A DNA stretch of 64,000 nt from Sulfolobales archaeon (GTDB lineage Archaea > Thermoproteota > Thermoprotei_A > Sulfolobales > NBVN01). The stretch lies in NCBI GenBank assembly GCA_038841535.1, contig JAWBTQ010000004.1, forward strand, positions 38,271 to 102,270, written 5' to 3'. Below the pieces are notes generated by a model that was given only the letters and a program-made list of their open reading frames with translations, made no database searches and was not told the origin of the DNA. The translations under genes and the position numbers were made by a program. This document shows positions 20,513 to 62,394 of the stretch, piece by piece; positions within the stretch are counted from its first letter, which is position 1; the number at the start of each line of letters is the position of its first letter.

Positions 20513-20592
20513 CTGCAGGTTACTAGTACCTTTAGATAAAAGCTGAAGCTAATATTTGGTATGTACCTATTAAGTTTCGGAGATGATGGGAT

Positions 20593-21939: not shown

Positions 21940-22146
21940 TAGCTAGCTCGGCAAGTAAAATCAACGAATCGTATAAGTCATTACCATCCTTAAATCCCTG
22001 GAGTACTCGTTGTTATATGTTTCGTACAATTTGTCGGATCCTCCATACTCTTTATCGATAGGATCATCTACGCGTACAGACACCTAGTTTAAGACCTAAG
22101 AAAGCCCTGTTTTACTTAATCTTATTTTCTTAGCAATAATTAATTA

Positions 22147-23019
22147 ATGGGTTCGGTAGATTTGGAGGATGTTGTACTTGTATCAACAATAATGGAGTAC
22201 CTAAAGAAAGGGATGAAGGTTGCTCTTTGTGAGGTAGTATATAAAGAGGGTTCGGCTCCTAGAGATGTAGGAGCTAAGATAGTCGTCGGTGAAGATGGGC
22301 TTAAAGTAGGGACGATTGGTGGTGGTTTATTTGAATCTGAGCTTGTATCAGACGCTCTCAAAGCTATTGCGGAGGGTAGGTCGAGGTTGGTGAAGTACTC
22401 GTTTACTGGTAAAGCTGTTGAAGGAGCGAAAGACACCGGTCTATTGTGTGGTGGGGTTCTCTGGGTCTTTATAGATGTTTTTGCGCCACCTCAGAGAGCT
22501 CTAGTTATTGGCCTAGGAAATGTTGGTAGACCCCTATCCCACATCTTGAAGCTAATGGGTTTCGAAGTTCACGCTTTAGATACAGATAAAGAAACAGAGA
22601 GAATAGCCGGGGATTTGGGTTTGTCGTCCGTCTTCGTGGGAACTATAGAGGGAATAGCTAGTAGGATACGCGAGATCACTAAAAGAGGAGATCAGGTATT
22701 CGTAGTGTATGGAGACGTACACGCAGACTACGTGTTTGTCAAAGAATCACTTAAAACAGAGGCAAGTACCATCTGGCTACTAGGTAGCAGAAGGAAGGTA
22801 GCCGAATTCGTTAAGAAACTAATTTCGGAGGGGTTTAGTTCCGAGGACTTAATCAGGAGATTAAGAGCTCCAATAGGTATAGATATAGGAGCTGATACTC
22901 CAGAAGAAGTAGCTATAAGCGTAGCAGCCGAGCTCGTGGCCCTGAGGCGAGGTGCTAACGCTAGGAGCCTAAACGCAGTGCCTCAGCTAGTAGCAGAACT
23001 CACGAGAAGTAGCACTTAG
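22147..23019 (+). CDS. XdhC/CoxI-family molybdenum cofactor insertion accessory protein
   Basis: N-terminal XdhC_CoxI pattern (LCEVVYKEGSAPRDVGAKIVVGEDG...GTIGGG) plus a Rossmann-like C-domain (VIGLGNVG). Confidence 0.8.
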   Translation: MGSVDLEDVVLVSTIMEYLKKGMKVALCEVVYKEGSAPRDVGAKIVVGEDGLKVGTIGGGLFESELVSDALKAIAEGRSRLVKYSFTGKAVEGAKDTGLLCGGVLWVFIDVFAPPQRALVIGLGNVGRPLSHILKLMGFEVHALDTDKETERIAGDLGLSSVFVGTIEGIASRIREITKRGDQVFVVYGDVHADYVFVKESLKTEASTIWLLGSRRKVAEFVKKLISEGFSSEDLIRRLRAPIGIDIGADTPEEVAISVAAELVALRRGANARSLNAVPQLVAELTRSST

Positions 23020-23095
23020 CTCGTACTTTTATCGTTTGAGTAAACCTCAACTTAATTAGGCACTTTACTAAGTATATTAATGGATAGAGAACATA

Positions 23096-24166
23096 ATGAT
23101 TAGCACTAAGTTGATTAAAGCTAGGCTGTCGTCCCTATCATGGCTTCTAATACTTCTAGCACTGATAACTAGCTCTCTCATTGCTTCAGCTAGTTCGAGT
23201 CTTGATAGGCACAGTCCTGATTTTCAGTACCGCTTAACTAGCTATGGTGATGTCTGGACTCAAAACGAGGTCTTGGCTCTTACAGAGGTTTTAAATAGCT
23301 TAAAGCAGTATGGGGTAGCGCATGTCTCTACTGCTGTCCGAGACTCTGGGGAAGTTTTAAACAAGTTGATCAGCAAGTTGCAACTCGTTGACGAGAGGAT
23401 TTCACTAGCTCTAAGAAGCTTGCTAGGTTTATCTAAAGACCTACCCGAGGACCTATCTTCGAGAATAAGTAATGTCTCTATTAGTAGTAAAAACGCAAGT
23501 CGATTGATTAAGGTAATAAACCACCTTTATTCTAATGGAGAGCTAAGCGGTGTTGACTATTTAGTGCTTATAGGACATGTAGCTAACGAGCTCAAAGAAG
23601 GTTACGTTGAAGATTCTGAAACTATTACCAACTTGCGGAGGGCTATTGATGAGATTTCCTCTATTATCACGAAGTCAACAATCCCACCGCTACCGGAGCC
23701 GGATATATCTTCTAGGTATAATGGGGCGGTACTCTTAATTAAACCCATCGAAGTCCCCAAACCTGTCTTGATAGCAATTTTACTTGTCGTGCTCGTCCCT
23801 CCCGCTACACACGCTTCTCTCAGCTTCCGCACGCGTACTTACTACTCTAAGCTTTTACGTAAAGCCCAGCTAACTTCAGACTTAATCGTTTCAAGTCTCA
23901 GTTTCCCTGAGGATACCGTTTCCGCTTACTGGGTAGCAGTAGGCATACTATCTAAAGTAATAACGGTCAATCCATGGGAAACTCATAGAGAGTTTTTAGC
24001 TAGATTAGGAAAAGAACTTAAGAATCAGCAAGTACTGTCCGTCTTTAAAACCCTTACAGAGGAATATGAGAAAGTCCGATTTGCCGGTGAAGTGGGTTCC
24101 CTAAGCCGGAAACAGTTGGTCGATATTGTGGTGTATATAGCAAACGAAGTTCGATATATAGATTGA
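23096..24166 (+). CDS. Membrane protein with DUF4129-like C-terminal domain
   Basis: N-terminal signal/TM (LSWLLILLALITSSLIASA), an internal TM (PVLIAILLVVLVPP), and a C-terminal ETHREFLARLG...LTEEYEKVRFAGE pattern. Confidence 0.55.
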   Translation: MISTKLIKARLSSLSWLLILLALITSSLIASASSSLDRHSPDFQYRLTSYGDVWTQNEVLALTEVLNSLKQYGVAHVSTAVRDSGEVLNKLISKLQLVDERISLALRSLLGLSKDLPEDLSSRISNVSISSKNASRLIKVINHLYSNGELSGVDYLVLIGHVANELKEGYVEDSETITNLRRAIDEISSIITKSTIPPLPEPDISSRYNGAVLLIKPIEVPKPVLIAILLVVLVPPATHASLSFRTRTYYSKLLRKAQLTSDLIVSSLSFPEDTVSAYWVAVGILSKVITVNPWETHREFLARLGKELKNQQVLSVFKTLTEEYEKVRFAGEVGSLSRKQLVDIVVYIANEVRYID

Positions 24167-24769: not shown

Positions 24770-26044
24770 CTAAGGCTGTGTGTTGGATAAGTGCAGTAGG
24801 TGTACTGAGCATGATATGCACGGGTCATAGCTTCTAACGATCCTCTTAGCGATGTCGATGGCTCTAGTATCAGCACTTGCACCAAAGAGCTTGCTCATTA
24901 TCACATTTTCCATCGAAGCCAGATTTTGAGCTGTTGGAGTCACTATGTTGCTATTTCGAACTCTCAGTTCTCTATCTAAGTTATACCTATGGTATAGGAT
25001 CCCCCTAGGTGCTTCTGTAGCCGCTACGCAAGCACCTCTTGGTGCCGTCCTAGGTTCGGTTCTAGTAACCGACCTCTCTCGATATTCGTCGAAAAACTCC
25101 TTGAGTTCTAAGAGAGTATGGTATGTTTCAGCTATTCGAGCTACTACACTCTGGTAGATGTTCTTGAGGCTCTCTCCGTAGCCATATTCGCTAATTAGCT
25201 CTTTAGCTTCCTCCCTTAAGTACTTGTAGTAGAGATTGTACCTTGCCAGAGGTCCAACAGCGTAGGGCTCTCCAGTTATCAATCTATACCTAAGCGCATT
25301 AGAGTACCCTACCTGCTCAGTGAGTACGAAGTTCTCAAAAGCTTCTACTTTAGCAGAAGAGCCGTCATCAGCAACTACACCACTCCCAACCCACGGGTAC
25401 CGGGTTCCGTTTTCTACAGCCATATACCTTAGCCTATGGACTTCAACCGGTATGCTGCCGAGGTCTAGCACGAACTTAGCTATGTCTATAAAGTCTCTTA
25501 TTACTTTAGGTAGGTCATGCTTAAGTTTTTCGACTTTACTAGCACTCGGGAAACTATATACCCCACCAACACGTATGTTAAGCACGTTATGAAATCTTCC
25601 TCCTAGGGTTTCCATAACCTTTCTAGACCAGAGAACTATTTCTGTACTCTTGCTAAAGATATGTGAATAGCTTTCCGAAAGCTCTTTCAGAGAGCCGATC
25701 TCGAGAAAGTCCGGTAAGTGGAGAAGAGCTACGTGAATAACGTGGCTCTTAACTCTTTCTGCTGCTAATACTGCTAGCCTCAGCCTTTCTTCATCTTCCG
25801 GCACCTCTATAGATAGGCAGTTCTCGAAGGCTTTAGAAGCGGTGAGAGCGTACGAAACACCGCACAGTCCGCATATTCTACTAGTTAGGTCCGGGACCTC
25901 AAAGCACCTCCTTCCCCTAACTATGTACTCGAAGAATCTCGGTGCTTCAGTTATCTTAATTTCGACGCTAGTTACTCTACCGTCAGAAGACTTAAGCACT
26001 ACCTGACCTTCTCCTTCAACTCGAGTTAGAAGTCCGGACAGCAT
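24770..26044 (-). CDS. [NiFe] hydrogenase large (alpha) subunit, group 3b sulfhydrogenase-like
   Basis: N-terminal RICGLCG and C-terminal DPCISCSVH metal-binding motifs, with a 9-aa C-terminal extension. The operon order and sizes match the Pyrococcus-type beta-gamma-delta-alpha arrangement. Confidence 0.9.
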   Translation of the reverse strand: MLSGLLTRVEGEGQVVLKSSDGRVTSVEIKITEAPRFFEYIVRGRRCFEVPDLTSRICGLCGVSYALTASKAFENCLSIEVPEDEERLRLAVLAAERVKSHVIHVALLHLPDFLEIGSLKELSESYSHIFSKSTEIVLWSRKVMETLGGRFHNVLNIRVGGVYSFPSASKVEKLKHDLPKVIRDFIDIAKFVLDLGSIPVEVHRLRYMAVENGTRYPWVGSGVVADDGSSAKVEAFENFVLTEQVGYSNALRYRLITGEPYAVGPLARYNLYYKYLREEAKELISEYGYGESLKNIYQSVVARIAETYHTLLELKEFFDEYRERSVTRTEPRTAPRGACVAATEAPRGILYHRYNLDRELRVRNSNIVTPTAQNLASMENVIMSKLFGASADTRAIDIAKRIVRSYDPCISCSVHLLHLSNTQP

Positions 26045-26051
26045 TGTTGGC

Positions 26052-26822
26052 TCACCTACTAGAAGAAGACTTAGTGAGAGACGAGTAGCTAAACGCTTTA
26101 AGCATGGCCATAAAGTCTTCTCTACTCATCCCAAGTCTCTCCACCACCTTCGAGAACTCCTCTAGCTTCTCTCTATCTACTATAAGTGCGTTAAGACCGT
26201 AGCACCCATAGCAACCACGCCTAAAGCTTGGGCAGAGCGCTCCACAGCCGGATAGAGTTATTGGACCGAGGCACGGTTTTCCATCAAATACTGTTACACA
26301 TAGTATCCCCTTTCTCTTGCACTCCGAGCATAAGCTCTCAACTATCGGGGACTCGCTTCCCCCCATCACTAGCTTAACTAGAAACCTAGCTAAAGCCTCT
26401 CCGTTAGCCGGACAGCCAGAGAATCTGTAATCTACGTTTACTACGCTATCTACGCTCTTAACTTCTGGTAGCACCTTGATATGGTCGGGGTTTGGGTAGG
26501 AGGCTAAAACAACAGTTCTAAGATCCTCTCCTGCTCTCAGAGACTGTACTCCACCGAAGACAGCGCAGGTACCTAGAGCTATTAGTACTCTAGATTTCTC
26601 TCTAACCTGCTTAACTAGCTCTTCCTGCTCGCTGTTCGCTATAGAACCCTCAACTATGGCTACATCTACATCTTCAATAGCGTTTGAGTCCTGTAGTTCA
26701 GTAAAGTAGGATATGTTGAGGTACCTCAGTAGCTCAGCGCGTGCTACTAGTGAGTAAAGCACCTCGTTTAAGCATCCAGAGCACGAGGTCAGCTTCAAAA
26801 CTGAGACACTAAGTTTCCTCAT
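26052..26822 (-). CDS. [NiFe] hydrogenase small (delta) subunit, group 3b-like
   Basis: Proximal cluster motifs CSGC, GTCAVFGG, GCP. The medial/distal cluster block is CSECKRKGILCVTVFDGKPCLGPITLSGCGALCPSFRRGCYGC. Confidence 0.9.
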   Translation of the reverse strand: MRKLSVSVLKLTSCSGCLNEVLYSLVARAELLRYLNISYFTELQDSNAIEDVDVAIVEGSIANSEQEELVKQVREKSRVLIALGTCAVFGGVQSLRAGEDLRTVVLASYPNPDHIKVLPEVKSVDSVVNVDYRFSGCPANGEALARFLVKLVMGGSESPIVESLCSECKRKGILCVTVFDGKPCLGPITLSGCGALCPSFRRGCYGCYGLNALIVDREKLEEFSKVVERLGMSREDFMAMLKAFSYSSLTKSSSSR

Positions 26823-27646
26823 AGTCCTCTCACCGTCACATACTGTTTTACGTCTTGGTAACTAAACACCGGTCCATCTTTGCATATAAAGTAATGACCC
26901 AGTTGACACGTGCCGCAGATCCCTATACCGCATCTACACCTCCTCTCCAGTGATAGGAACACCCTATCCTCTTTTACGCCCTTCTTTACGAGCTTGTCTG
27001 CAGCTACCTTCATCATTACCTCTGGACCACAAACGAACGCAACTGTGTTCTGCAGGTTAAATTTAACTCTGTCTATAAGGTCTGTTACAAAGCCTACATG
27101 ACCCTTCCAACCGGAATGCGGTATGTCTATAGAGAACAGAATTGTGGAGTTCGGTATTTTACTGTACTCCTCGTATTCGTACTTAAATAGCATATCTACA
27201 GGTCTTCTAGCTCCATAAAGGAGTATGAAGTGCCCGTAGAGACTCCTATTCTCGGCTACGTGCTTTATTAGCGCTCTCAGTGGAGCTAACCCTATTCCAC
27301 CGCCTATAACAAGGACGTCATGGCCCTCAAATTCGCGGATAGGCCAACCCCTACCGTAGGGCCCGCGAATCCCCAGGTAGCTACCCACACCAACGTTAGT
27401 GTAGATGTAATTAGTTACTGCTCCTACAGCTCTAACGGTGTGCTCCACTAAGCTCCTATCTCCTGCTGCATAGTTTGATATAGAAATGACTACTTCACCC
27501 ATACCCTTTACATAGAGAACATCAAACTGACCTGGTAGTGGTGTCGGAAAGCCGTCGACCACTATATGGTATGTTCTAACTAGTGGGGCCTCATCTACTA
27601 CTTTAGTTACCCTCCCTTTCATCGGAATGAGTTTATCTACCGGCAT
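26819..27646 (-). CDS. Sulfhydrogenase gamma-like subunit (FAD/NAD(P)-binding oxidoreductase with C-terminal 2Fe-2S, PyrK-like)
   Basis: Ferredoxin-reductase-type fold (GGGIGLAPL) and a C-terminal CRCGIGICGTCQ cluster. Confidence 0.85.
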   Translation of the reverse strand: MPVDKLIPMKGRVTKVVDEAPLVRTYHIVVDGFPTPLPGQFDVLYVKGMGEVVISISNYAAGDRSLVEHTVRAVGAVTNYIYTNVGVGSYLGIRGPYGRGWPIREFEGHDVLVIGGGIGLAPLRALIKHVAENRSLYGHFILLYGARRPVDMLFKYEYEEYSKIPNSTILFSIDIPHSGWKGHVGFVTDLIDRVKFNLQNTVAFVCGPEVMMKVAADKLVKKGVKEDRVFLSLERRCRCGIGICGTCQLGHYFICKDGPVFSYQDVKQYVTVRGL

Positions 27647-28721
27647 ATCCTACAGCCCTCGAGACAACCTCCTTTAAGTCTATGCCCATAGGACACCAGG
27701 TAATACACCTTCCACACCCAACACAACCTGGAAGGCCAACTTGTTTTTGATAAAAGAGAAACTTGTGTAGCACGAAGTGTCTGTACCTCATAAAAAGCTC
27801 TGGTCTGAAGTGCTGACCAGCAACTTGACCATACGTAAACGAAAGACAGCCGAACCAGTGTCTATCACGCCAGGCTTTGCCTGATAGATCAGCATAGTCG
27901 TTAAACTCCGTGCAGAAGCATGTTGGACATACCATGTTGCAGTTAGTGCAGCCAACGCACCTCGCTGAAGCCTCTCTCCAGAATCCCTCTGCGGCAGCTA
28001 CATCTTCAAGAGCTCTGACTACGACATTAAATGGTGGAATTCGAGAAGCCTCTTTCCTAGCTTCATTTAAAGCTTCATCATACATTCTTAACGTCTCTTC
28101 TGAAGCAGGAGTGATACCTACTCTCTCAACTAGCTTAAGCCCTTTCTCGGAGCCTACCTTAAACAGCACTTGATCACCTAACCTAGCGTACGCTATATCG
28201 TACCCCTTCGATACGGCAGGTCCTGTCCCGATCGAGCCACAGAAACACGTACCTCCAGGTTCAACACACTCTTCTACCACTATATACTCTATGCGTGCCC
28301 TTCTAGCCTGGTATACGTCATCGCGTTCTAGAACTTTATCAAGCACTTCGATAGCGGCAAGATCGCAAGGTTTTATTCCAAAAAGTACTGATGGAGGGAA
28401 GTCGTCCTTAGTTCGCACTATCTCGAAGTCATCGGAGATCTCGTAAACAACCTGAGTTGGGTAGTGCAGGAGATGCTTAGGGGAGTACTGAGTGTGCCTA
28501 AAGACTCCCTTTACTTCTTTAGCAAGCCTGTAACTCCCGGGGCTCTGTATGTCTGTGTAGTCGATTAGTAGGTCGCTTAGTCTGCTCACTTCTCCAATCA
28601 CAGGTAAGTCTCCTTCAAGTTTGTAAGATAACACTCTCAGTCCTAGCTCCTTTAGAGCAAGTATGAGGTTCTCTAATAAGAGTACACTGCCCTCGAAGTA
28701 TTCTCCAAGCATTCTTGACAT
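27633..28721 (-). CDS. Sulfhydrogenase beta-like subunit (4Fe-4S, AsrA-like)
   Basis: CVGCTNCNMVCPTCFC and CVGCGRCITWCP cluster motifs; first gene of the operon. Confidence 0.85.
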   Translation of the reverse strand: MSRMLGEYFEGSVLLLENLILALKELGLRVLSYKLEGDLPVIGEVSRLSDLLIDYTDIQSPGSYRLAKEVKGVFRHTQYSPKHLLHYPTQVVYEISDDFEIVRTKDDFPPSVLFGIKPCDLAAIEVLDKVLERDDVYQARRARIEYIVVEECVEPGGTCFCGSIGTGPAVSKGYDIAYARLGDQVLFKVGSEKGLKLVERVGITPASEETLRMYDEALNEARKEASRIPPFNVVVRALEDVAAAEGFWREASARCVGCTNCNMVCPTCFCTEFNDYADLSGKAWRDRHWFGCLSFTYGQVAGQHFRPELFMRYRHFVLHKFLFYQKQVGLPGCVGCGRCITWCPMGIDLKEVVSRAVGYAGR

Positions 28722-28834: not shown

Positions 28835-30133
28835 TTAGCAGACTTTAAACATCCTCCTAATGTCGCTTAACTTAGTTACTCTCTCTTGGAATATCGCGCT
28901 AAATCTCTTTTTGTTACTTAATGGCTGTCCTCCACCCATTAAGCAGCCACCAGGACATACTTCAAACACTGGTAGACTCTTTTCATTTCGAAAGCTCGTG
29001 AGGTTGGCAGGAGGGTATACCTTAGTAACCTCTCTCTGCCTAAGGACTACGTAATCGGGGTATTCATCAGTTAGCGTATCGTAGTTAAGTTTCTTGAGAG
29101 CTATCTGCGCTTCCCGCGCAGTCAGCACTCTTGGGAGTACTCTTTTCCAAGATAGGCACTGAGTGATATAGACTACTCCAGGTGGTATGTTTAGCTTGGG
29201 CTCGATAGCTTTAACTCCAGGTGCTAAAGTTTGAAGTATCTTTTTCTCGGCTAGCGACCTAGCTACTATCACTTCCTCAGTTCTTAAATCGACTTCAGCA
29301 AGTGGGTCGTATACCGTGACCCTTTCGAATCCGATAGCCTTGAGTCCGCAAATGACCTTAAGCGGGTCTAGTCCCTCAGCTTCCGATAAAGAAGCTATGA
29401 CCTCGGGCTCTACGTACGCCTCAGATACGTGTCCTCTTCTAATTTCAGCGAGTACTTTATCTACATCTAAGCTGTACGTAATGGATCCAGCAGGACAGTA
29501 TGCAGCACAGAGTCCGCAGTAAACGCAGCCGGACTTTCTGAAGGGTTCTCCATAAGGTGTTGAGACTAAAGTCTCTATACCTCGGTTAACGTAGTTAAGT
29601 ACCTTAGCCCCGATCTTCGAGCATATTTCAACGCACCGTCCGCACACAAAGCACTTAAGCTGGTCGAACTTCATTAACTCGTCCTCTATCACTTGACCTC
29701 CTCGCTCGATATAACTAAATCTTTTCTCACTAACTATCCACTTAAGCCCTGCCGCTATCTTCTTAATTAATTCAATAACTTCTGATGGCTGAGCCGGACA
29801 GCCTCTTACGTAGCAATCTACCTTAACATGGCTACTCACAGGTTTTGACAGACCTAGAGCTCCTTGTACGCCTCCTAGACATGCGCAACTACCTAGGGCT
29901 ACCAAGACCTTTGCTTTGCTTCTAACTCTGTGGAGTAGCTCGAGGTCTCTCCCGCTCAGTACCGACCCCTCGACTAAGGCTACATCAACGTCATCGACTT
30001 CTTTACCTATTCCAGCTAGCGGCCAGTAAGTTAGTGAGATGTCGTCTCTCTCTAAAAGGTCGGCAAACTCTTTGCTCACCAAGTTGTACTGACAGCCATC
30101 GCAGCCAGATAGGGCCACGATCGCAACCTTCAT
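28835..30133 (-). CDS. Fusion protein: [NiFe] small-subunit N-terminal (proximal-cluster) domain + 2x[4Fe-4S] ferredoxin + degenerate [FeFe]-hydrogenase H-domain
   Basis: Residues 1-135 carry CDGC, GSCACLGG, GCPAQP. Then come CFVCGRCVEICS and CVYCGLCAAYCP. Then Fe_hyd_lg_C-like blocks follow: YVEPEVIASL, LKAIGFERV, ITQCLSWK, VLTAREA, FEVCPGGCLMGGGQP. Confidence 0.85.
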   Translation of the reverse strand: MKVAIVALSGCDGCQYNLVSKEFADLLERDDISLTYWPLAGIGKEVDDVDVALVEGSVLSGRDLELLHRVRSKAKVLVALGSCACLGGVQGALGLSKPVSSHVKVDCYVRGCPAQPSEVIELIKKIAAGLKWIVSEKRFSYIERGGQVIEDELMKFDQLKCFVCGRCVEICSKIGAKVLNYVNRGIETLVSTPYGEPFRKSGCVYCGLCAAYCPAGSITYSLDVDKVLAEIRRGHVSEAYVEPEVIASLSEAEGLDPLKVICGLKAIGFERVTVYDPLAEVDLRTEEVIVARSLAEKKILQTLAPGVKAIEPKLNIPPGVVYITQCLSWKRVLPRVLTAREAQIALKKLNYDTLTDEYPDYVVLRQREVTKVYPPANLTSFRNEKSLPVFEVCPGGCLMGGGQPLSNKKRFSAIFQERVTKLSDIRRMFKVC

Positions 30134-30140
30134 TAATCTA

Positions 30141-31412
30141 TCACCTCACTTTAACGACGTGAACGGCACACGGGATACACGGGTCGTAAGCTCTAACGAG
30201 CGCCTCTATGTACTTCTGTATAGTTGAATCACTAGCGCCTTCAGCGAGAAGTTCTTTGGCTATAGAGGTTGCGGACAGCTCTACGTGCTCTGTATTCATG
30301 ACTGTCGGAGTAGCTATATCAGCCCTAACGACTTTTAGGTCTTTATCTACCTCGTAGTAGTGTATCAGTAACCCTCTCGGAGCTTCCACAACACCTAGAC
30401 CAGCTGACGCACATCTCGTAGTAGCCGGCTGTAGCTCTAGGTCTCTAGATGAAAGCTCACTGACGTCTTGAACTATGGAGTCGAACATCAGCTTCGATTC
30501 TATTGCTTTAGCGTAGATGTTGGAGTAGGGGTTTTCTTTAAGCTTTTTCTCAAAGCTAGCCACAACACCTCTAGTCTCACCGTCGAGTTCGTTGTACTCT
30601 AGTGCACTTAAGAGTCTAGCTCTAGCTCCAACGTAAAACGGGTAGCCTAAGAATAAGCACTTTTTGCTACTAGAGTACTCAACGTGTAGTTCGTTAAAGA
30701 GCTCTCTATAGTTCTCTAAGGTAGTAGCGAACCTTCCAGTAGGTGTATTTAAGCTGTAGGGCTGGCCTCTTGGGACAGTGGACCTAGTAGACCCCGATAG
30801 AGCAACGTACCTAGGTGATGGGTCTCTAGAGTTCGGAAGCTCGATGTCTAGCACTCTCTCTGTGAAGCCCTCGAGGTGGGGCCGCACGGATTTTAGTAGC
30901 TCAAGTGCTGACATGAATACTCTACGGCTGACGTCGGATAGGAACCTCCCCATAGAGTAGTTATTGGGTGACGTAAGTCTGCCGCATACGAGCTTAATGA
31001 CCTTGTTTAAGTAGGTGTTGATCTCTAGAGACTTCTTCGCGAGCTGCTCAGAAGCTTCCCTACTTAAGTAGTCCGGTAGCGCTAGAACCCCTAAGTGAAT
31101 TACGTGGTTCTGAATAAAGCTCAGCTTATTGCATACGTCCCTCAATCTGACAGTGTCTTCAGAGGCTTCTACCCCTGCGATTTGCTCAACAGCTAAAGAC
31201 GCTGCCCAGAAATGGGGGTGGCTACACACTCCGCAGATCCTTGAAGCTATAGCTGGTACTTCACTAACTTTCCGCCCGATGACTAAGTTTTCGAATCCTC
31301 TCAGGCTTGCTACTGAGCTATACGTGACTCTCGCAGAGCCGTCGTATATCAACACCTCTACCTTGGACTCACCGGCCACTCTAGGTATTTCCCAGCTTAG
31401 TGACTTACTCAT
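30141..31412 (-). CDS. [NiFe] hydrogenase large subunit (group 3, NAD(P)-linked type)
   Basis: RICGVCSHPH and DPCIPCAVH motifs; only a 5-aa C-terminal extension (VVKVR). Confidence 0.9.
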   Translation of the reverse strand: MSKSLSWEIPRVAGESKVEVLIYDGSARVTYSSVASLRGFENLVIGRKVSEVPAIASRICGVCSHPHFWAASLAVEQIAGVEASEDTVRLRDVCNKLSFIQNHVIHLGVLALPDYLSREASEQLAKKSLEINTYLNKVIKLVCGRLTSPNNYSMGRFLSDVSRRVFMSALELLKSVRPHLEGFTERVLDIELPNSRDPSPRYVALSGSTRSTVPRGQPYSLNTPTGRFATTLENYRELFNELHVEYSSSKKCLFLGYPFYVGARARLLSALEYNELDGETRGVVASFEKKLKENPYSNIYAKAIESKLMFDSIVQDVSELSSRDLELQPATTRCASAGLGVVEAPRGLLIHYYEVDKDLKVVRADIATPTVMNTEHVELSATSIAKELLAEGASDSTIQKYIEALVRAYDPCIPCAVHVVKVR

Positions 31413-32068
31413 GGTTTACCACCCTTCGTGACTACCTCCCTTAGTCTCTCGGGTAGATTGCTCCAGAAAAACTTCATAGTAGCCTCGATCTCCTTTACGT
31501 CTATTCTATACCTCCTGTATAGCTCCACTGTAGCGTCTTCCCAAATCCTTGAGTCACTTAAGTACCCCCGACACCCCACACACGGAGCTCCGTAGCGAGG
31601 GCATTCAGCAGAACAGCCGGCGACAGTCAGAGGTCCTAAGCACGGCTCACCCTTTGTGATGAGGCATTCATCCCCTATGAGTGGGCACTCAGAGCACACC
31701 GGTAACCCTTCGATACCTAGCTGCTTCGATACTTCGAGTAGGGTACAGTTCGACTTCCTTATGCAGCTCCAGCACTTGACTCTATGTGTCGATAGCAGTA
31801 GCTCTAGGTTGGTCCTTCTATACCTAGTGAGCTCATCACCTTCCGTCACTATTTTAGCTTCCTCAGATACCGGGAACCTACATGAGGGAACGACTCTCCC
31901 GTTAACTAGGACTACGCATATTCTACAAGTAGCTTCCTCGAAGAGTCCCTCGAGATAGCAGAGTACGGGGACTCTAAACCCAGCCTTCTCAACAGCATCT
32001 ATTACGAAAGCGTTTCGTGGTACCTCTACCCGTACGCCATTTACGTAAACTCTAACCGCGTCCACCAT
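31409..32068 (-). CDS. Fusion protein: HydA/NuoG/HoxU-type N-terminus (2Fe-2S + His-ligated 4Fe-4S) + [NiFe] small-subunit C-terminal (medial/distal cluster) domain
   Basis: CYLEGLFEEATCRIC..C (2Fe-2S) and HRVKCWSCIRKSNC (HxxxCxxCxxxxxC). Then CSECPLIGDECLITKGEPCLGPLTVAGCSAECPRYGAPCVGC follows, collinear with the delta subunit of the neighbouring operon. Confidence 0.85.
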   Translation of the reverse strand: MVDAVRVYVNGVRVEVPRNAFVIDAVEKAGFRVPVLCYLEGLFEEATCRICVVLVNGRVVPSCRFPVSEEAKIVTEGDELTRYRRTNLELLLSTHRVKCWSCIRKSNCTLLEVSKQLGIEGLPVCSECPLIGDECLITKGEPCLGPLTVAGCSAECPRYGAPCVGCRGYLSDSRIWEDATVELYRRYRIDVKEIEATMKFFWSNLPERLREVVTKGGKP

Positions 32069-32071
32069 CTC

Positions 32072-33892
32072 TCACACCTTCCTAATTGCTCCAAAGGGAC
32101 ACGCGATCAAGCATTGACCGCACTTAGCGCAAAGCTCTTCCCTTACTTTATGGACTTCTCCCGGCGAGCCAGATATCGCACCGGTAGGGCAGGTCTTAGC
32201 GCACTGCGTGCAACCCCTGCATAGGGCTGGGTCAATAACGTACTTAACTAACTTAGTGCAGACTTTAGCTGGACACCTACGATTGATTACGTGTTCTACG
32301 TACTCGTGTTTAAAGTACCACAGTGTCGACAGTATGGGGTTGGGTGCCGTTCCCCCGAGTGCGCAGAGGCTTGACTTAGCTATGCTCTCACCGAGCTCTT
32401 GAGCGAGCTCTATATCGTCTATCGTTCCAGTACCACTCGTAATCCTCTCCAGTATGTTGCTGAGCTGCTTCATGCCAACTCTACAAGGGAGGCACTTCCC
32501 GCAGGATTCAGCTAGAGTAAAGCCGGTGAAGAACTTTGCTACATCAACCATGCAGTTACCGTCGTCAATGACTACTAAACCTCCAGACCCCATTATGGCA
32601 CCGTAGCTCTGCAGGCTCTCGTAGTCCATCTCTAGGTCCATTAGCTCAGCTGGAATGCATCCCCCACTAGGACCTCCTATCTGTACAGCCTTGACTTTCC
32701 TACCCTCCGGAGGTCCTCCCGCTATATCGAAGACTAAGGTCTTTATCTTAGTCCCCACAGGCACTTCGTAAACCCCAGTCCTCTTGACGGCCCCAGTAAC
32801 ACAGAACATCTTAGTTCCTTTCGACTTGTCCGTTCCGTACTTAGTGAACTCGGCTACACCACTCTGGAATATCGTAGCAACGTGAGCAAGAGTCTCCACG
32901 TTGTTTATGACTGTTGGTTTTCCCCGCAGTCCACTAGTCGCAGGATAGGGAGGCCTCTGCCTCGGTCTAGAGCGGCCCTCTATAGCTGCTATTAGTGCTG
33001 TTTCTTCTCCACACACGAACGCACCCGCACTCCTATAGACTTCTACGTCGAAGTCGAACCCGGAGCCCAGGATGTTCTTCCCCAGGAACCCCGCTCTTCT
33101 TGCGTCGTTGACTGCTTTCTCTAGTCTTTCAGCCATAAGGGGTTTCTCGGCTCTAACGAAAATAAACCCTTTAGTCGCCCCAATAGCGTAGCCGGCGATT
33201 ATGAGCCCCTCTAGAACTCTATGGGGGTCTGATTCAGCGAGGAGCCTGTTCATGAAGGCACCAGGGTCTCCTTCGTCACCGTTGCATATTACGTACTTAA
33301 CGTCGCTCTTTTGTTCGTACGCTACCTTCCACTTAAACCAGGTCGGAAAGCCAGCTCCTCCTCTTCCTCTAAGACCGGAAGCCTTAACTTCCTCTATTAC
33401 TTTCTCTCTACTCATACTCAAAGCTCTCTTAAGTCCCGAGTACCCACCGGTCTCTACATAGTCTTCGATGGACTCAGGGTTTATTAAGCCGCAGTTTCTG
33501 GAAACGTACCTCGTCTGAAGTCTCCAGTAGTCTAGTTCGTCTAGCGACGGCGGGTCTCTAGAGTCTGTTTTGAATCTTACCGCAGTAGCTCCAGAGAGGT
33601 CTCCCTCTAAATACCTCTTCAAGATCTGTGGGACTTGGTCGGGCTTTACGTTTCCGTATAGTGCCGGAGGCTGTCCTTCTTTAGCTACCTCGATCCAGGG
33701 ATCCATAAAGCAGAGACCGGTACACCCTACTGTATACACTTCGGCGTCTAGCTTTAGCTCTTCGACAGCTCTGCGAACTCTTCTATATACTTCTTCAGCA
33801 CCTGCAGCAAGAGTACAGCTAGCTATCGGCACCCGTATTCTAAAGCCTTTACTACCGTACAGTATCTTCCTCAGAGTAGCCTGCGGCAGCAA
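32072..33892 (-). CDS. NuoF/HydB-like NAD(P)H-binding flavoprotein subunit with extra N-terminal Fe-S domain and C-terminal 2x[4Fe-4S] domain
   Basis: GGAGFPT (FMN), GDEGDPGAF, ESCGKCLPCRVG (N3 cluster), C-terminal CRGCTQCAKTCP and CAKCGQCLIACP; 606 aa. Confidence 0.9.
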   Translation of the reverse strand: MLPQATLRKILYGSKGFRIRVPIASCTLAAGAEEVYRRVRRAVEELKLDAEVYTVGCTGLCFMDPWIEVAKEGQPPALYGNVKPDQVPQILKRYLEGDLSGATAVRFKTDSRDPPSLDELDYWRLQTRYVSRNCGLINPESIEDYVETGGYSGLKRALSMSREKVIEEVKASGLRGRGGAGFPTWFKWKVAYEQKSDVKYVICNGDEGDPGAFMNRLLAESDPHRVLEGLIIAGYAIGATKGFIFVRAEKPLMAERLEKAVNDARRAGFLGKNILGSGFDFDVEVYRSAGAFVCGEETALIAAIEGRSRPRQRPPYPATSGLRGKPTVINNVETLAHVATIFQSGVAEFTKYGTDKSKGTKMFCVTGAVKRTGVYEVPVGTKIKTLVFDIAGGPPEGRKVKAVQIGGPSGGCIPAELMDLEMDYESLQSYGAIMGSGGLVVIDDGNCMVDVAKFFTGFTLAESCGKCLPCRVGMKQLSNILERITSGTGTIDDIELAQELGESIAKSSLCALGGTAPNPILSTLWYFKHEYVEHVINRRCPAKVCTKLVKYVIDPALCRGCTQCAKTCPTGAISGSPGEVHKVREELCAKCGQCLIACPFGAIRKV

Positions 33893-34400
33893 TACTGCCG
33901 AACCCCGCGGTACTAGCCGCTCTAGACTTGTAGCTTAAGATAAGCCTCCTACTCTCAGTCGGTGTGAGCTTACCGTGAACGTATCTCTCGGAGCCATCTG
34001 AAGAGACAACCATGGCAACCGGGGCTAGGCTACAGCAACCGAAGCACCTCGCCTTTTCGATAGTGAGAGAGCCGTCCTCCGTCGTAGTTCCTCCGTCATT
34101 AAGTCCGACTGCTCTCCTCATCGCTTCGTAAACCTCTGAAGAACCCCTCAAGTAGCACGCTGTACCAAAGCATACGTATGCTACGTACTTACCCACCGGT
34201 TCGAGCCTGAACTGGTGGTAGAAAGTAGCTACGTTGAGGACTTCAGCGAGAGACACTCCTAAGCGCCTAGATACCTCTTCGAGGCTTTCTCTAGGTAAGT
34301 ACCCAAACGTTCTTTGAACTTCTTGAAGAATATTGATCAGCTTACTTCTATCCGTACCGATCCTCGAAACTACGCTCTCAACGAATCCTCTAGGATCCAC
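33852..34400 (-). CDS. NuoE/HydC-like 2Fe-2S thioredoxin-like subunit
   Basis: VCFGTAC and RCFGCCSLAP motifs; GTG start; overlaps the next gene by 41 nt. Confidence 0.85.
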   Translation of the reverse strand: MDPRGFVESVVSRIGTDRSKLINILQEVQRTFGYLPRESLEEVSRRLGVSLAEVLNVATFYHQFRLEPVGKYVAYVCFGTACYLRGSSEVYEAMRRAVGLNDGGTTTEDGSLTIEKARCFGCCSLAPVAMVVSSDGSERYVHGKLTPTESRRLILSYKSRAASTAGFGSIAAAGYSEEDTVR

Positions 34401-34488: not shown

Positions 34489-35385
34489 CTATACCTTGGG
34501 GAAGAAGTACTTGCACCTACACGCCTTATTTCTAACACACCTTCCTAAGACTACCTCCGATATCCTAGAGGTTAAGTACTTGATGTTTCTACAGATTTCG
34601 TTTCGACACTCTGTTTCTCCCAACAAGCTGAGGACCTTGATCACGCTGTTGACAGCTGTTTCAACGTCTTGAACTAGGGTAGCACTTATAGCCGCTCTCG
34701 ACAGCTCTAGGACTCTCGACAGCTCTACGTCTTCGCTTAGCTTAGGTTGCTCGACTCCTACTAAGATGTCGAAGAGCTCCTTGATGTACTCAATTGATAC
34801 GGCTAGGTCTAGAGCTTCGTAGGGGTCTATAGAGCCGTCGGCAACACCCTGCTTTATGGTTCTAAGGAAGTACAGGTACTTTCTGTAGAACTCTCTGTAT
34901 GTAGCGGGAGTAGAGGGGTTTCTCTCTTCAACGCAGTCTATGAGCTTGCTAGAGGTAGCTTCGATGGTTTTTAAGAGCGAGAGGAGGTCTGTCTTTACGT
35001 CAGAAAAAACTAGTTCGTGGATATTCGAACCCGGGTTAGCCATGAGGACGAAGCTCGTTACATAGTCCTTAAGGCTCTCAGAGAGCTCTAGAGACTGCTC
35101 ATAGCTCGACTTTATCTTAACTCTCGTTACTCCCTCTACGTAGGAGGCAACTAGCTTCCTAATTGCTAGGTCGCTAGACTCGTACTCTATTAAGACGTTG
35201 ACTTCCTCGCTTTGCTCACTACTCGAAGATGGAACTACAGTTATCTTAGAGCCATCGAAGTAGAGGCTAACTCTATCTCCAGGTTTAATACCTAGAGCGT
35301 CAGCCCACCTCTTCGGCACTATTATAGATAGAGAACCCTTACCAACCACGTTCACTTTCTTGACTAAGCGCTCAGACATCTGCAC
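34489..35385 (-). CDS. AbrB/SpoVT-domain + PhoU-like domain transcriptional regulator
   Basis: N-terminal swapped-hairpin pattern VGKGSLSIIVPKRWADALGIKPGDRVSLYFDGSKITVVP, followed by a helical PhoU-like repeat region. The likely start is ATG at 35379 or GTG at 35385. Confidence 0.75.
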   Translation of the reverse strand: MQMSERLVKKVNVVGKGSLSIIVPKRWADALGIKPGDRVSLYFDGSKITVVPSSSSEQSEEVNVLIEYESSDLAIRKLVASYVEGVTRVKIKSSYEQSLELSESLKDYVTSFVLMANPGSNIHELVFSDVKTDLLSLLKTIEATSSKLIDCVEERNPSTPATYREFYRKYLYFLRTIKQGVADGSIDPYEALDLAVSIEYIKELFDILVGVEQPKLSEDVELSRVLELSRAAISATLVQDVETAVNSVIKVLSLLGETECRNEICRNIKYLTSRISEVVLGRCVRNKACRCKYFFPKV

Positions 35386-36091: not shown

Positions 36092-36417
36092 GTACTGCTA
36101 TTCTCAAGGATTTCTAGTGATGACCTGATTCTAGTAGTAAGATAGTATCGCAACTTGGGGTGTAGTTCAGCTACTCAATAAGTCGCTGAGTTAGTCGCCC
36201 GCTCAAATTCGGGAGCGGCGTGGGCGTTCAGGAGTCCGTGGATTGCTTAGTGCTCTAGTTCTATACTCATAGAGTACTAGAGTATTGAGAGCTTCACGCA
36301 GTGATCTCTGCCGTAGTCTAAGCTAAAGCTCTTAGCGCTCTCCACGTCTGTGCTCACCCGGAGAAGTCTCCAGCACCTTCGGCTCTCCTCAATAATCTAG
36401 AGCTTTTTCACTCTACT

Positions 36418-36936
36418 TCACGCTTCTTCGCGAGGTTCCTTTAGCAGGCTCTTCGCAGGGTAGATGACTGGGCCGAAGCAGAGTAAAAAACCGAAGGCTT
36501 CGAGAGACAGGGTGCCTGGGCAATCACTCCTCGCATACTTACTGAGCTCAGCCCTCACTCTGCTGAGTATTTCCCCACCTATAGACCCAGCTCTCGGGAT
36601 CCTAACCCTGCTAAAGCAAGCTTGCTCGACAGTACTACCTACTACGTAGTCTACTACGTAATCTAGTGAAGCGTTGTAGCAACTGATGCAGGACAGTACG
36701 TAGGTTACGTACTCGACTGCCGAGAAGTAGTGCCTGGTGAGGAGGTCCCTCATGAACTCTGGAGACTGAGAGCTCTTGATTACAGCAACTCCCCCGATGT
36801 CCGGGAGAAAGACCTCTACGGAGTTGTCGTAGGGGTAAATAGTGTCACCTAGCTCTAGAGAGGCTCTCTCTTCTTTGGAGTAGCGGCTAGTAGCTACATA
36901 GGTATACTTACGCATAGAACAAGGACAGCACACCAT
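36418..36936 (-). CDS. Hypothetical protein (possibly a THUMP-like RNA-binding fold)
   Basis: 172-aa ORF with good coding appearance. The THUMP suggestion rests only on a loose pattern (VEVFLPDIGGVAVIK...SRVRIPRAGSIGGE). Confidence 0.4.
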   Translation of the reverse strand: MVCCPCSMRKYTYVATSRYSKEERASLELGDTIYPYDNSVEVFLPDIGGVAVIKSSQSPEFMRDLLTRHYFSAVEYVTYVLSCISCYNASLDYVVDYVVGSTVEQACFSRVRIPRAGSIGGEILSRVRAELSKYARSDCPGTLSLEAFGFLLCFGPVIYPAKSLLKEPREEA

Positions 36937-36960
36937 AGCTTTGCGTACATAGGGGAAGGC

Positions 36961-37233
36961 TTAGCTACTAGAGCAGAGCTTCTTTAAGACTACCCTCTCG
37001 TAGTAAGTAGGCTGAATCCACATGATCCACGCCGGCACCTTCTTAACGAACTCGTAGGCTTCCCCCCAGTCCTCAACACCTATATCAGCAGCAAGCCTCT
37101 CTAAGCTATACTCTGAGTGTACATACCTATTCAGTAAAGCCACTACATCCTTAGTTAAAGCGATTTCTTTACCACTACTGAGCCTAATTACGGGAACGCA
37201 GTCCTCCATAGTCCCTCCTCTAGTTTGAAGCAC
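36961..37233 (-). CDS. Hypothetical small protein
   Basis: 90-aa ORF upstream of and co-directional with 36418-36936. The likely start is at the internal MEDCVPV. Confidence 0.45.
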   Translation of the reverse strand: MLQTRGGTMEDCVPVIRLSSGKEIALTKDVVALLNRYVHSEYSLERLAADIGVEDWGEAYEFVKKVPAWIMWIQPTYYERVVLKKLCSSS

Positions 37234-37340
37234 TCGCTCACTTAAATATTTTCATTTCCGTAAGCAATACAGCCCCAGCTCCCGCAGGAGAGATAGAGTC
37301 CCCCAGCGATAACGCTTATAATATCATAAAAAGTAGAAGT

Positions 37341-38369
37341 TTGGTGGATGTTTTGAAGCCAAAGGTCTTCGTAACTAGGGAGCTTTTCGACGACATAATA
37401 GCTAGGATGTCGGAGCTCTACGAAGTAGAGGTTTGGGACAAATACCACCACCCACCGTACGACGTACTCCTGAGTAAAGCAAGAGAAGTAGATGCTTTAG
37501 TAACGCTTTTAACGGATAAAGTAGACTGCAATCTTCTTCAGAGTGCGCCAAAACTAAGGATAGTTGCTCAGTACGCTGTAGGATTCGATAACGTTGACCT
37601 CGAGTGTGCAACAAAGCTGGGAATATACGTAACTAACACACCGGACGTCATAAGCGACACTGTCGCAGAACTTACGTGGGCTCTCATACTAGCAGTAGCT
37701 AAGAGAGTCTTGGAGTCCGACTCATTCGTTAGACGGGGAGAATGGCATAGAACCGGCACTCCGTGGCACCCCAAGATGATGCTGGGTACAGAGCTTAAAG
37801 GCAAGGTGCTAGGGATAGTTGGTCTCGGTAGAATAGGGACACGAGTAGCTAAGATAGGCTCTCTAGGCTTCGGAATGAGGGTGATATACTACGATATCAT
37901 TAGATACAAAGAGAAAGAAGGGATCTTGGGAGTTGAGTATAAGAGTAGCCTAGAAGACCTTCTTAAGGAGGCAGACGTAGTGAGTCTCCACGTACCCCTA
38001 ACTAAAGACACTTACCACATGATGAACGAGGAGAGGCTCAAGCTCATGAAGAAAACAGCTATCTTAGTCAATACTGCTAGAGGTGCTGTAATAGATACTC
38101 AAGCATTAGTTAGAGCACTAAAAGAAGGTTGGATAGCTGGCGCAGGAATCGACGTGTTCGAAGGAGAGCCAATACCCGGAGACCACCCACTAACTCAGTT
38201 CAAAAACGTAGTACTCGTCCCCCACATAGGCAGTGCGACACTTGAAGGAAGATATAGGATGGCCCAAGTAGTTCTCGAAAACCTCACAGCGTTTTACGAA
38301 GGAAGAAAGCCACCTACGCTAGTAAACGAAAGCGTATTAAACGTCCGCCCCCCAGGCTTTAAGAAATAA
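37341..38369 (+). CDS. gyaR: Glyoxylate/hydroxypyruvate reductase (D-isomer-specific 2-hydroxyacid dehydrogenase)
   Basis: Near-collinear with Pyrococcus-type GRHPR as I remember it: KVFVTRE, PKLRIVAQYAVGFDNVD, GIYVTNTPDV, GLGRIG, INTARG..D, PHIGSAT, PPTLVN. Confidence 0.9.
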   Translation: MVDVLKPKVFVTRELFDDIIARMSELYEVEVWDKYHHPPYDVLLSKAREVDALVTLLTDKVDCNLLQSAPKLRIVAQYAVGFDNVDLECATKLGIYVTNTPDVISDTVAELTWALILAVAKRVLESDSFVRRGEWHRTGTPWHPKMMLGTELKGKVLGIVGLGRIGTRVAKIGSLGFGMRVIYYDIIRYKEKEGILGVEYKSSLEDLLKEADVVSLHVPLTKDTYHMMNEERLKLMKKTAILVNTARGAVIDTQALVRALKEGWIAGAGIDVFEGEPIPGDHPLTQFKNVVLVPHIGSATLEGRYRMAQVVLENLTAFYEGRKPPTLVNESVLNVRPPGFKK

Positions 38370-38629: not shown

Positions 38630-38721
38630 GCCGCGGTAGTATAGCCCGGTCAAGTATGCGGGCCTCTCGTGCTCGTCGGGGTGAGCCCGTGACCCGGGTT
38701 CAAATCCCGGCCGCGGCACCA
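38630..38721 (+). tRNA. tRNA-Glu (anticodon CUC) with a 14-nt intron at the canonical 37/38 position; CCA encoded
   Basis: Acceptor GCCGCGG/CCGCGGC, T-arm CCGGGTTCAAATCCCGG, anticodon stem CGGGC/GCCCG, loop CU-CUC-G[intron 38670-38683 TGCTCGTCGGGGTG]A. Confidence 0.85.
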
Positions 38722-62310: not shown

Positions 62311-62394
62311 TCCCGCCGGGGGGATTCGAACCCCCGACCACCCGGTATCGGCCCCACACTACAGCCGGGCGCTCTGCCGCTGAGCTACGGCGGG
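62311..62394 (-). tRNA. tRNA-Tyr (anticodon GUA) with a 12-nt intron at 37/38; no encoded CCA
   Basis: The reverse complement is CCCGCCG-TA-GCTCAGCGGCAGAGC-G-CCCGG-CTGTAG[TGTGGGGCCGAT]A-CCGGG-TGGTC-GGGGGTTCGAATCCCCC-CGGCGGG-A. The C1:G72 pair is typical of archaeal tRNA-Tyr. Confidence 0.9.

Follow-up and report, generated by a model that had tools for sequence, protein, structure and literature searches.

A conserved archaeal operon for a putative [NiFe] hydrogenase with a bifurcating-type core and a reduced [FeFe]-hydrogenase domain

Five minus-strand genes at positions 28835–34400 of a 64,000-nucleotide stretch of DNA from a Sulfolobales archaeon (assembly GCA_038841535.1, contig JAWBTQ010000004.1; hereafter the window) form a real and conserved operon that joins parts of a [NiFe] hydrogenase to parts of the electron-bifurcating [FeFe] hydrogenases of the HydABC type. 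The encoded set comprises HydB and HydC subunits of the bifurcating (Bfu) family, a [NiFe] large subunit, and two chimeric proteins over which a [NiFe] small subunit and a HydA subunit are distributed. One of the chimeras ends in a reduced homolog of the H-domain of [FeFe] hydrogenases. The reading that we favor, with moderate confidence, is a NiFe-based hydrogenase that is coupled to NAD(H) and ferredoxin, is built on a Bfu core, and carries a relic H-domain that binds an iron-sulfur (FeS) cluster.

Organization of the operon

An earlier interpretation of the window, made from its letters and open reading frames (ORFs) alone and here called the sequence-only reading, had described five co-directional genes that abut or overlap, and an ORF check found them exactly where it had placed them. 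In operon order, the genes encode HydC (BfuC; 33852–34400), HydB (BfuB; 32072–33892), HydD (31409–32068), the [NiFe] large subunit HyhL (30141–31412), and a fusion protein (28835–30133), with lengths of 182, 606, 219, 423, and 432 amino acids, respectively. The first two genes overlap by 41 nt, hydB and hydD are 3 nt apart, hydD overlaps the large-subunit gene by 4 nt, and 7 nt separate the latter from the fusion gene. In Pfam searches, the NuoE-like HydC, with its one [2Fe-2S] cluster (C1), matched 2Fe-2S_thioredx (E 7e-42), HydB matched Complex1_51K, SLBB, NADH_4Fe-4S, and two C-terminal Fer4 domains, HydD matched Fer2_4 and NADH-G_4Fe-4S_3, HyhL matched NiFeSe_Hases, and the fusion protein matched Oxidored_q6 and two Fer4 domains. 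The predicted metal ligands of the five proteins are 94–100% conserved across approximately 50 related loci, indicating that these are real genes under selection and not chance ORFs.

The listed start of HydB is a TTG codon within 33852–33892, in the 41-nt overlap with hydC. Because homologs align only from residue 18, the true start probably lies further downstream, up to about 17 codons past the TTG.

Among solved structures, HyhL is nearest to the alpha subunit of the group 3b hydrogenase SH1 (5yxy_A, 6e-37), followed by MvhA (7e-32) and then by HoxH and the HydL of Acetomicrobium mobile at about 5e-28 to 6e-28. The residues Cys60/63 and Cys412/415/His418 are 100% conserved. In a rough neighbor-joining (NJ) tree, the large subunits of this operon form their own clade, apart from the neighboring group 3b alpha subunits, the Mvh-type large subunits, and those of the Thermoplasmata hybrids.

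Two reciprocal chimeras

The two genes that flank the large-subunit gene encode proteins of mixed composition. HydD residues 5–127 match the N-terminus of a bifurcating [FeFe] HydA (7q4v_A residues 6–128, E 2e-19), and residues 122–215 match the C-terminal part of the delta subunit of Pyrococcus furiosus SH1 (9nez_A residues 161–254, E 5e-20). The N-terminal half (residues 1–121; 31706–32068, minus strand) is thus assigned a HydA/NuoG-type [2Fe-2S] cluster (A1) and a His-ligated [4Fe-4S] cluster (A2), whose ligands Cys37/48/51/63 and His95/Cys99/102/108 are 98–100% conserved. The C-terminal half (residues 122–219; 31409–31705, minus strand) is assigned the medial and distal [4Fe-4S] clusters of a group-3b [NiFe] small subunit, and its eight cysteines (125–166) are 100% conserved, which places all 16 FeS ligands of HydD at 98–100%. 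The sequence-only reading had called this protein similar to HydA or to the N-terminus of NuoG, a description that holds for the N-terminal half and overlooks the two-cluster, small-subunit-type C-terminal half.

The fusion protein begins with the proximal-cluster, N-terminal half of a group-3 [NiFe] small subunit (residues 1–135; 29729–30133, minus strand; Oxidored_q6), in which residues 2–131 match MvhG (5odc_E residues 3–168) and SH1 delta (residues 5–94). It continues with a HydA-type ferredoxin domain for two [4Fe-4S] clusters equivalent to A3 and A4 (residues 136–225; 29459–29728, minus strand) and ends in a homolog of the H-domain (residues 226–432; 28835–29458, minus strand). Residues 138–282 match HydA residues 123–272 (HydA1 8a6t_A, E 2e-20 for this stretch), and a PDB phmmer search additionally matched residues 392–414 to HydA residues 495–517, around the motif CPGGCxxGGGQP. 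The proximal-cluster cysteines 11, 14, 83, and 112 and the eight cysteines of the ferredoxin domain (161–213) are invariant, and the 12 ligands of these two parts are all 98–100% conserved. Partial NCBIfam matches agree with the split composition of the chimeras, as in HydD, which matches positions 1–119 of the FeFe_hydrog_A6 model and positions 164–257 of the sulfhyd_HydD model; none of these matches attains the equivalog cut-off.

When the two small-subunit parts were rejoined in silico (S_N+S_C), the product aligned collinearly and in one piece, through the junction, with the group-3b delta subunit encoded elsewhere in the window (36% identity, E 7e-34). The rejoined HydA parts (A_N+A_C) were likewise collinear with Pseudothermotoga HydA (E 3e-24). 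Judged by these alignments, a three-cluster group-3b-type small subunit and a HydA have each been cut once and cross-fused.

The gene order in the window would fit a Campbell-type origin, in which a circular S–L unit entered hydA by a single crossover and yielded [A_N+S_C]–L–[S_N+A_C]. This scenario is undercut by Thermoplasmata relatives that carry the fusion gene at the opposite end of the operon and by Bathyarchaeia operons with no large-subunit gene between the chimeras. As these orders differ, the topology is not universal, and such an origin is only speculation.

The H-domain of the fusion protein

The C-terminal ~200 residues of the fusion protein are a reduced homolog of the [FeFe]-hydrogenase H-domain. 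The sequence-only reading had described the protein as a small-subunit fusion and had passed over this region. The window protein is not matched by Pfam Fe_hyd_lg_C (PF02906) even when the threshold is relaxed to E ≤ 1, and of 31 family members only 11 are matched; homology was therefore established through the PDB phmmer match, through relatives, and through the fold. An AlphaFold2 model of the fusion protein, built with 31 homologs, has a mean pLDDT (predicted local distance difference test) of 85.9, and only the linker at residues 135–143 is of low confidence. The best Foldseek matches of this model in the PDB were Thermotoga maritima HydA (7p8n, E 1e-15), T. kivui HydA1, and CpI, all with a probability of 1.0, and MvhG matched its N-terminal part.

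To compare H-domain motifs, 152 sequences were aligned, including five bacterial HydA references. The canonical HydA motifs are TSCCPxW (L1), MPCxxKK (L2), and CPGGCxxGGGQP (L3). A ~570-residue class from Thermoplasmata, which is positive for PF02906, has TSWCPSA, TPCxxxK, and PCxxGCxTGGGQ at these positions, and a ~500-residue class has SWCK (with the Cys kept), PCtAlK, and PCLxrClxGGGnY; both retain all four cysteines of the [4Fe-4S]H cluster. The class to which the window protein belongs (413–472 residues, 40 sequences) has ARSPAE (ARSLAE in the window), TQCxSWK, and CPGGCLxGGGQP. Both L1 cysteines, namely the proton-relay Cys and a [4Fe-4S]H ligand, are absent in 40 of 40 members, and in this class an Arg stands in place of CpI Cys299 and Ser293 in place of Cys300. 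The window protein thus keeps three of the four cluster cysteines, Cys326 in L2 and Cys393 and Cys397 in L3 (CPGGCLMGGGQP), and these three are 100% conserved in 54 sequences, with Ser293 conserved in at least 90% and the GGGQP motif near-invariant. The domain is also short, at ~207 residues in the window, with an L1-to-L2 spacing of 33 residues versus 55 in canonical HydA and an L2-to-L3 spacing of 67–70 residues (67 in the window) versus 149. A rough NJ tree with bacterial HydA as the root recovers the short class as monophyletic, with the two longer classes as its sister group.

Most likely, the H-domain of the window protein is a shrunken relic that holds a plain FeS cluster and not a catalytic H-cluster. 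Genes for the maturases HydE, HydF, and HydG and for Hyp proteins were sought in the 64-kb window and none were found. This counts as weak evidence for a relic, since HydEFG are also missing from most archaea that have active [FeFe] hydrogenases (Greening et al., Cell 2024, PMC11216029). Two radical SAM proteins encoded at 2647–4242 (plus strand) and 45879–47405 (minus strand) were considered as HydE or HydG and rejected, as they are B12-binding types related to the TIGR04013 and TIGR03960 families. An AIRS protein in the window was similarly rejected as a Hyp maturase because it is ThiL-like.

The reduced H-domain could instead still bind a catalytic H-cluster in which Ser293 or some other residue takes the place of the lost Cys. 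This would give the dual-site arrangement proposed for groups F and 3f (PMC11216029), with a [NiFe] and an [FeFe] site feeding one bifurcating core. The published hybrid hydrogenases share the fusion architecture and the five-gene set (PMC11216029), the L2 motif has a Lys at +4 as in the four-Cys Thermoplasmata class, and the conserved residues listed above, the fold, and the general scarcity of HydEFG in archaea with active enzymes would all fit such a dual-site hybrid. We nevertheless regard it as unlikely, given the complete loss of the L1 cysteines across the clade, the contracted L2-to-L3 spacing, the failure of Pfam to detect Fe_hyd_lg_C in the window protein, and a domain of ~207 residues where even the smallest active [FeFe] class averages 286 residues for the whole protein (PMC11216029).

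A more doubtful proposal is that the short clade is not a mere decayed copy and represents an informative evolutionary state, being either a pre-catalytic lineage of H-domains with a plain FeS cluster or else an unusually ligated minimal active site. If the former were true, the clade would supply the missing non-hydrogenase outgroup for rooting the tree of [FeFe] hydrogenases, and the H-domain would have arisen within a NiFe-Bfu complex; if the latter, this would be the smallest H2-activating H-domain known.

Bifurcating-type features of HydB and HydC

A search of PDB sequences matched HydB over its whole length (residues 18–606) to solved bifurcating B subunits, with E-values of 1e-199 for 9bov_B and 2e-190 for the A. 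mobile NiFe-HydB (7t2r_B). C. saccharolyticus NfnB (9n5u_B) and S. ovata StnB (8oh5_B) were matched as well, whereas the non-bifurcating HoxF (5xf9_A) was matched at 1e-72 and over the NuoF core only (residues 163–530). In A. mobile, the B2 site consists of Cys438, Cys476, His525, Cys531, and Cys536, where position 476 may be occupied by either Cys or Thr (Feng et al. 2022, PMC8880783). Alignment to 7t2r_B gives Cys447, Thr485, His534, Cys540, and Cys545 as the equivalents in the window. Conservation across 51 loci is 100% for Cys447, His534, Cys540, and Cys545 and likewise for the ligands of the B1 cluster (Cys464/467/470/510). The B3/B4 domain corresponds to the two Fer4 matches (residues 551–603); its eight cysteines are 94% conserved in the same loci, three of which are missing the domain. 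The N-terminal thioredoxin-like domain (residues 18 to ~110) was not matched by Pfam in the window HydB and aligns residue for residue with the solved bifurcating B subunits. Within this putative B5 [2Fe-2S] region, Cys26 and Cys57 are conserved and Cys61 is so at only 78%. In HydC, the cysteines at positions 77, 82, 119, and 123 show 100% conservation across 33 loci.

As far as sequence comparison can tell, HydB shows all the B1–B4 features of electron-bifurcating B subunits, with B5 as a putative further cluster. These subunits belong to the Bfu family defined by Schut et al. 2022, who pointed out an archaeal NiFe-Bfu in Halorhabdus (PMC9304861). The sequence-only reading had seen bifurcation-type accessory domains here and not a HoxF-like protein, and the full-length matches to solved B subunits and the paired Fer4 domains bear this out, the thioredoxin-like domain being recognized by alignment and not by Pfam.

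The three loci without the B3/B4 domain are of the Desulfurococcales type (L038, L040, and L053). Their HydB gave no match to a C-terminal 2x[4Fe-4S] query, and the ORF is ~50 residues shorter than those of the nearest neighbors. They may represent a naturally occurring variant that lacks the site proposed for ferredoxin.

If the extra clusters of HydB and HydC were vestigial or protective, the enzyme would not bifurcate and would work as a bidirectional [NiFe] hydrogenase linked to NAD(P)(H), much as the group 3d Hox or group 3b enzymes do. Such an enzyme would agree with a gene set of NuoE-, NuoF-, and NuoG-N-like proteins plus NiFe subunits that resembles HoxEFUYH, with partial NCBIfam matches to HoxE and HoxU, and with the three loci just described, which show that the HydB ferredoxin module can be dispensable. 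We judge it quite unlikely, since HydB is far closer to bifurcating B subunits than to HoxF, every B2, B3, B4, and C1 ligand is kept at 94–100%, and only bifurcating hydrogenases have the complete C1-B2-B3-B4 branch (PMC8880783). None of its four clusters occurs in the non-bifurcating HoxFUYH, and an equivalent of C1 is found in formate dehydrogenase and complex I (PMC8880783). An assignment to group 3d (Hox) was rejected on the grounds that HydB has all of the Bfu extras and that the L and S parts are nearest to group 3b.

Related loci

A scan that took a single genome for each GTDB species identified 61 related loci, all in metagenome-assembled genomes (MAGs). They belong mostly to Desulfurococcales/Sulfolobales-type archaea, Thermofilaceae, Wolframiiraptor, and Bathyarchaeia, and include Zestosphaera, Ignisphaera, and Pyrodictiaceae as well as single Archaeoglobales and Pyrobaculum bins. 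A protein collection yielded 34 full-length 90%-cluster representatives of the fusion protein, all from uncultured archaea and with no informative names. The order C–B–[A_N+S_C]–L–[S_N+A_C] is present in about 45 of the 61 loci, that is, in all with enough flanking sequence save for the Bathyarchaeia variants. The window falls in a monophyletic clade centered on Thermoproteota. It shares 96.8% DNA identity over 11.3 kb with JAUQPH010000011.1 (Thermoproteota archaeon GXS.bins.2.201912).

Six loci from Bathyarchaeia MAGs (L041, L043, L046, L054, L057, and L060) have the operon C-B-D-fusion with no large-subunit gene between the chimeric genes. In L041, a gene for an HdrA-MvhD fusion and MvhG/MvhA-like genes lie 0.4–5 kb downstream, and the fusion protein passes Pfam Fe_hyd_lg_C (36.8 bits); in L054, no L gene is located within the contig flank. 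Either the large subunit is encoded elsewhere in these organisms or the fusion protein works without a NiFe partner. The MAG of L057 also holds a second, broken copy of the locus (L061, CAZBGY010000036.1), in which HydD is divided between two ORFs and the fusion between a 110-residue small-subunit piece and a 309-residue HydA piece. This copy may be a pseudogene, the result of misassembly, or a naturally unfused form.

That the Bathyarchaeia fusion can exist without an adjacent HyhL is the one observation in line with HydBC-HydD and HyhL/fusion serving different enzymes, or with the fusion being a non-hydrogenase FeS scaffold, which we consider very improbable in view of five tightly packed or overlapping genes in fixed order at ~45 loci from several orders, large subunits that form one clade, small-subunit and HydA halves that lie on different polypeptides and make sense only if the chimeras assemble, and the stable complex obtained by AlphaFold modeling of a related five-subunit set (PMC11216029).

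Proposed electron transfer

We infer that the five proteins would form one cytoplasmic multi-subunit hydrogenase on a BfuBC (HydBC) flavin/FeS core. Each chimera would give one half to the small-subunit fold and the other to the HydA fold, and by contributing to both modules the chimeras would covalently staple the NiFe module to the HydA conduit. Electrons would pass from the NiFe site to the proximal cluster in the fusion protein, to the medial and distal clusters in the C-terminal half of HydD, and through A2 and A1 in its N-terminal half to B1 and the flavin mononucleotide (FMN) in HydB, where exchange with NAD(H), the predicted nucleotide partner, would take place. The other branch would run through C1 in HydC, B2, and B3/B4 to ferredoxin (Fd), as proposed for A. 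mobile. The predicted net reaction is that of A. mobile NiFe-HydABCSL, 2 H2 + NAD+ + 2 Fd(ox) <-> NADH + 2 Fd(red) + 3 H+. A side arm made up of A3/A4 and the relic H-domain would end in a plain FeS cluster on Cys326, Cys393, Cys397, and perhaps Ser293, a putative dead end like A5 of A. mobile HydA. An NAD(H)- plus ferredoxin-coupled hydrogenase is the best hypothesis for the function of the operon.

Several points weigh against this picture. The Bfu signature alone is no proof of bifurcation, and Hyd1ABC of Syntrophomonas wolfei is reportedly NADH-dependent and ferredoxin-independent despite its HydABC architecture. Every relative found is a MAG. The three retained H-domain cysteines, the GGGQP motif, and the near-invariant Ser293 would also fit a still-functional, unusually ligated H-cluster; a related Thermoplasmata fusion made H2, and archaea have been argued to make H-clusters without HydEFG (PMC11216029).

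To the hybrid [FeFe]/[NiFe] hydrogenases, first reported in 2024, the window adds a large, conserved hot-spring clade of 61 species-level loci. This clade displays another state of the [FeFe] module, reduced and with one cluster cysteine lost, next to an intact NiFe module and canonical Bfu core. If the H-domain is indeed a relic, the archaea would have taken an independent route to the solution of the bacterial NiFe-HydABCSL. The fusion sizes of ~570, 500, and 430 residues provide a natural series for how two hydrogenase types became entangled. Screens that rely on HydA or on Pfam Fe_hyd_lg_C will miss or misclassify enzymes of the window type. Physiologically, the enzyme would tie H2 to the NAD(H) and ferredoxin pools of fermentative hyperthermophiles, beside an NADP-type group 3b enzyme.

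Neighboring genes

A group-3b-type (sulfhydrogenase-like) [NiFe] hydrogenase is encoded directly downstream of the operon by beta, gamma, delta, and alpha genes at 24770–28721 (minus strand), with Pfam, PDB, and NCBIfam best matches to Shy/Hyd B, G, D, and A. The adjacent group 3b sulfhydrogenase described in the sequence-only reading is thereby verified; the four-gene set is context and not part of the hybrid complex. Such a set adjoins the hybrid operon, on either strand and across several lineages, also in L001, L007, L010, L020, L025, L029, L037, L044, and L050. The recurrence suggests a functional pairing of NADP-linked and NAD/ferredoxin-linked H2 enzymes.

Upstream of hydC by 88 nt is a gene for a 298-residue AbrB/SpoVT-family protein (34489–35385, minus strand), with a Pfam MazE_antitoxin/AbrB match at its N-terminus and a Cys-rich C-terminus (…GRCVRNKACRCKYFFPKV). 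Of the 61 related loci, 25 have a homolog beside the operon, and by this association the protein is a candidate for a dedicated operon regulator, possibly redox- or metal-sensing. Just upstream of this gene, the window region 36100–37992, compared with positions 1–2035 of L001, is a local divergence hot spot. DNA identity to L001, a near-identical MAG, falls from 96.8% to 83% over window positions 36457–37992, ~350 nt in between are unaligned, and the 172-residue product of the ORF at 36418–36936 is only 70% identical to its L001 counterpart.

On the other side of the group 3b genes, a cluster for a molybdoenzyme of the xanthine dehydrogenase family occupies 16806–24166. It encodes a small 2Fe-2S subunit (16806–17264), an FAD subunit (17264–18166), and a 781-residue Mo subunit (18167–20512), alongside an amidohydrolase (20593–21939) and XdhC (22147–23019). 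A MoCF_biosynth gene is located at 45329–45844. Two tRNA genes were identified, at 38630–38718 (plus strand) and 62311–62394 (minus strand); the former, at 89 nt, is longer than a standard tRNA gene and may have a long variable arm or an intron.

Comparison with known systems

The closest published architecture is that of the hybrid hydrogenases, in which a gene for a HyhS::HydA fusion (group F [FeFe]) lies contiguous with those for HyhL (group 3f [NiFe]), HydB, HydC, and a four-cluster NuoG-like HydD, the last modeled on 7T2R_A as well as 5ODC_E (Greening et al., Cell 2024, PMC11216029). Two Thermoplasmata fusions produced H2 after artificial maturation, and AlphaFold predicted a stable bifurcating complex for a related five-subunit set (PMC11216029). 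Hosts of group F comprise 21 genomes, Thermoproteia and Bathyarchaeia among them, and their HydB has a GltA/GltD-like glutamate-synthase domain as the low-potential site (PMC11216029). The window operon is likewise archaeal, from an uncultured organism, and has the HyhS-HydA fusion contiguous with HyhL, HydB, HydC, and a four-cluster HydD. The sequence-only reading had held that its proposal would fail if the same gene and domain architecture were already described; this architecture has been published, and the claim to a novel architecture therefore largely falls.

The window differs from these hybrids in several respects. Group F/3f hybrids have a "true" H-cluster domain with all cysteine ligands, which the window fusion does not. 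In the Thermoplasmata exemplars (L079 and L080), the gene order is fusion–HydC–HydB–HydD–HyhL, of which the window order is a cyclic permutation with the fusion last. Their HydB has 1050 residues with a GltD-like Pyr_redox_2 domain, whereas that of the window has 606 residues, a C-terminal 2x[4Fe-4S] domain, and no Pyr_redox_2. Their fusion has 500–590 residues and all four [4Fe-4S]H cysteines (L1 "SWCP"), as opposed to 413–472 residues and no L1 Cys in the window clade. Loss of the L1 cysteine is not mentioned in the main text of Greening et al. (PMC11216029). The incomplete H-cluster ligands, the type of HydB, and the gene order set the window apart from the two exemplars; if the published tables already contain the clade, the operon would count only as a further member of the published group. 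A search for later literature on hybrid hydrogenases found nothing beyond the Cell 2024 paper, and a survey of hot-spring MAGs that classified archaeal [NiFe] hydrogenases with HydDB reported only established subgroups (3a–3d among group 3; PMC11094006).

Group 3b enzymes (Pyrococcus furiosus SH1 and Thermococcus kodakarensis) are closest to the window large subunit and to both small-subunit halves (alpha and delta). Their beta (Fer4_22; sulfite-reductase-like) and gamma (FNR-like) partners are absent from the hybrid operon, which has Bfu-type C, B, and A modules instead. Group 3d HoxEFUYH has a HoxF without the B2–B5 extras, a HoxU of ~240 residues with A1–A4, and a one-cluster HoxY, and the window proteins depart from it in each respect, with A3/A4 carried on the small-subunit fusion and not on a HoxU. 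Bifurcating [FeFe] HydABC enzymes (Thermotoga maritima, T. kivui, and A. woodii) share full-length HydB/HydC homology, the N-terminal clusters of HydA, the ferredoxin domain, and the H-domain fold; unlike them, the window has a split HydA, a reduced H-domain without L1 cysteines, and a NiFe large subunit.

The A. mobile NiFe-HydABCSL (Type 3 NiFe-Bfu) has a full-length, H-cluster-less HydA of 692 residues and a one-cluster HydS (Feng et al. 2022, PMC8880783). It shares with the window the BfuBC core, the B2 ligand pattern, B3/B4, C1, and the HydA-type A1–A4, as well as the predicted reaction; in both, the H-domain has no canonical H-cluster site and the NiFe module is probably the only place at which H2 reacts. 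The view of the operon as an archaeal, domain-shuffled relative of this enzyme, advanced from the sequence alone, accordingly holds. The A. mobile HydL and HydS are Hox (3d)-like, with HydS separate, whereas the window has a three-cluster 3b-like small subunit and a HydA that are both split and cross-fused, and its large subunit is nearer to group 3b (6e-37) than to A. mobile HydL (6e-28). The window enzyme is archaeal and probably of an origin independent from NiFe-HydABCSL. We infer that the operon is built like the published hybrid hydrogenases and that its product works most like NiFe-HydABCSL.

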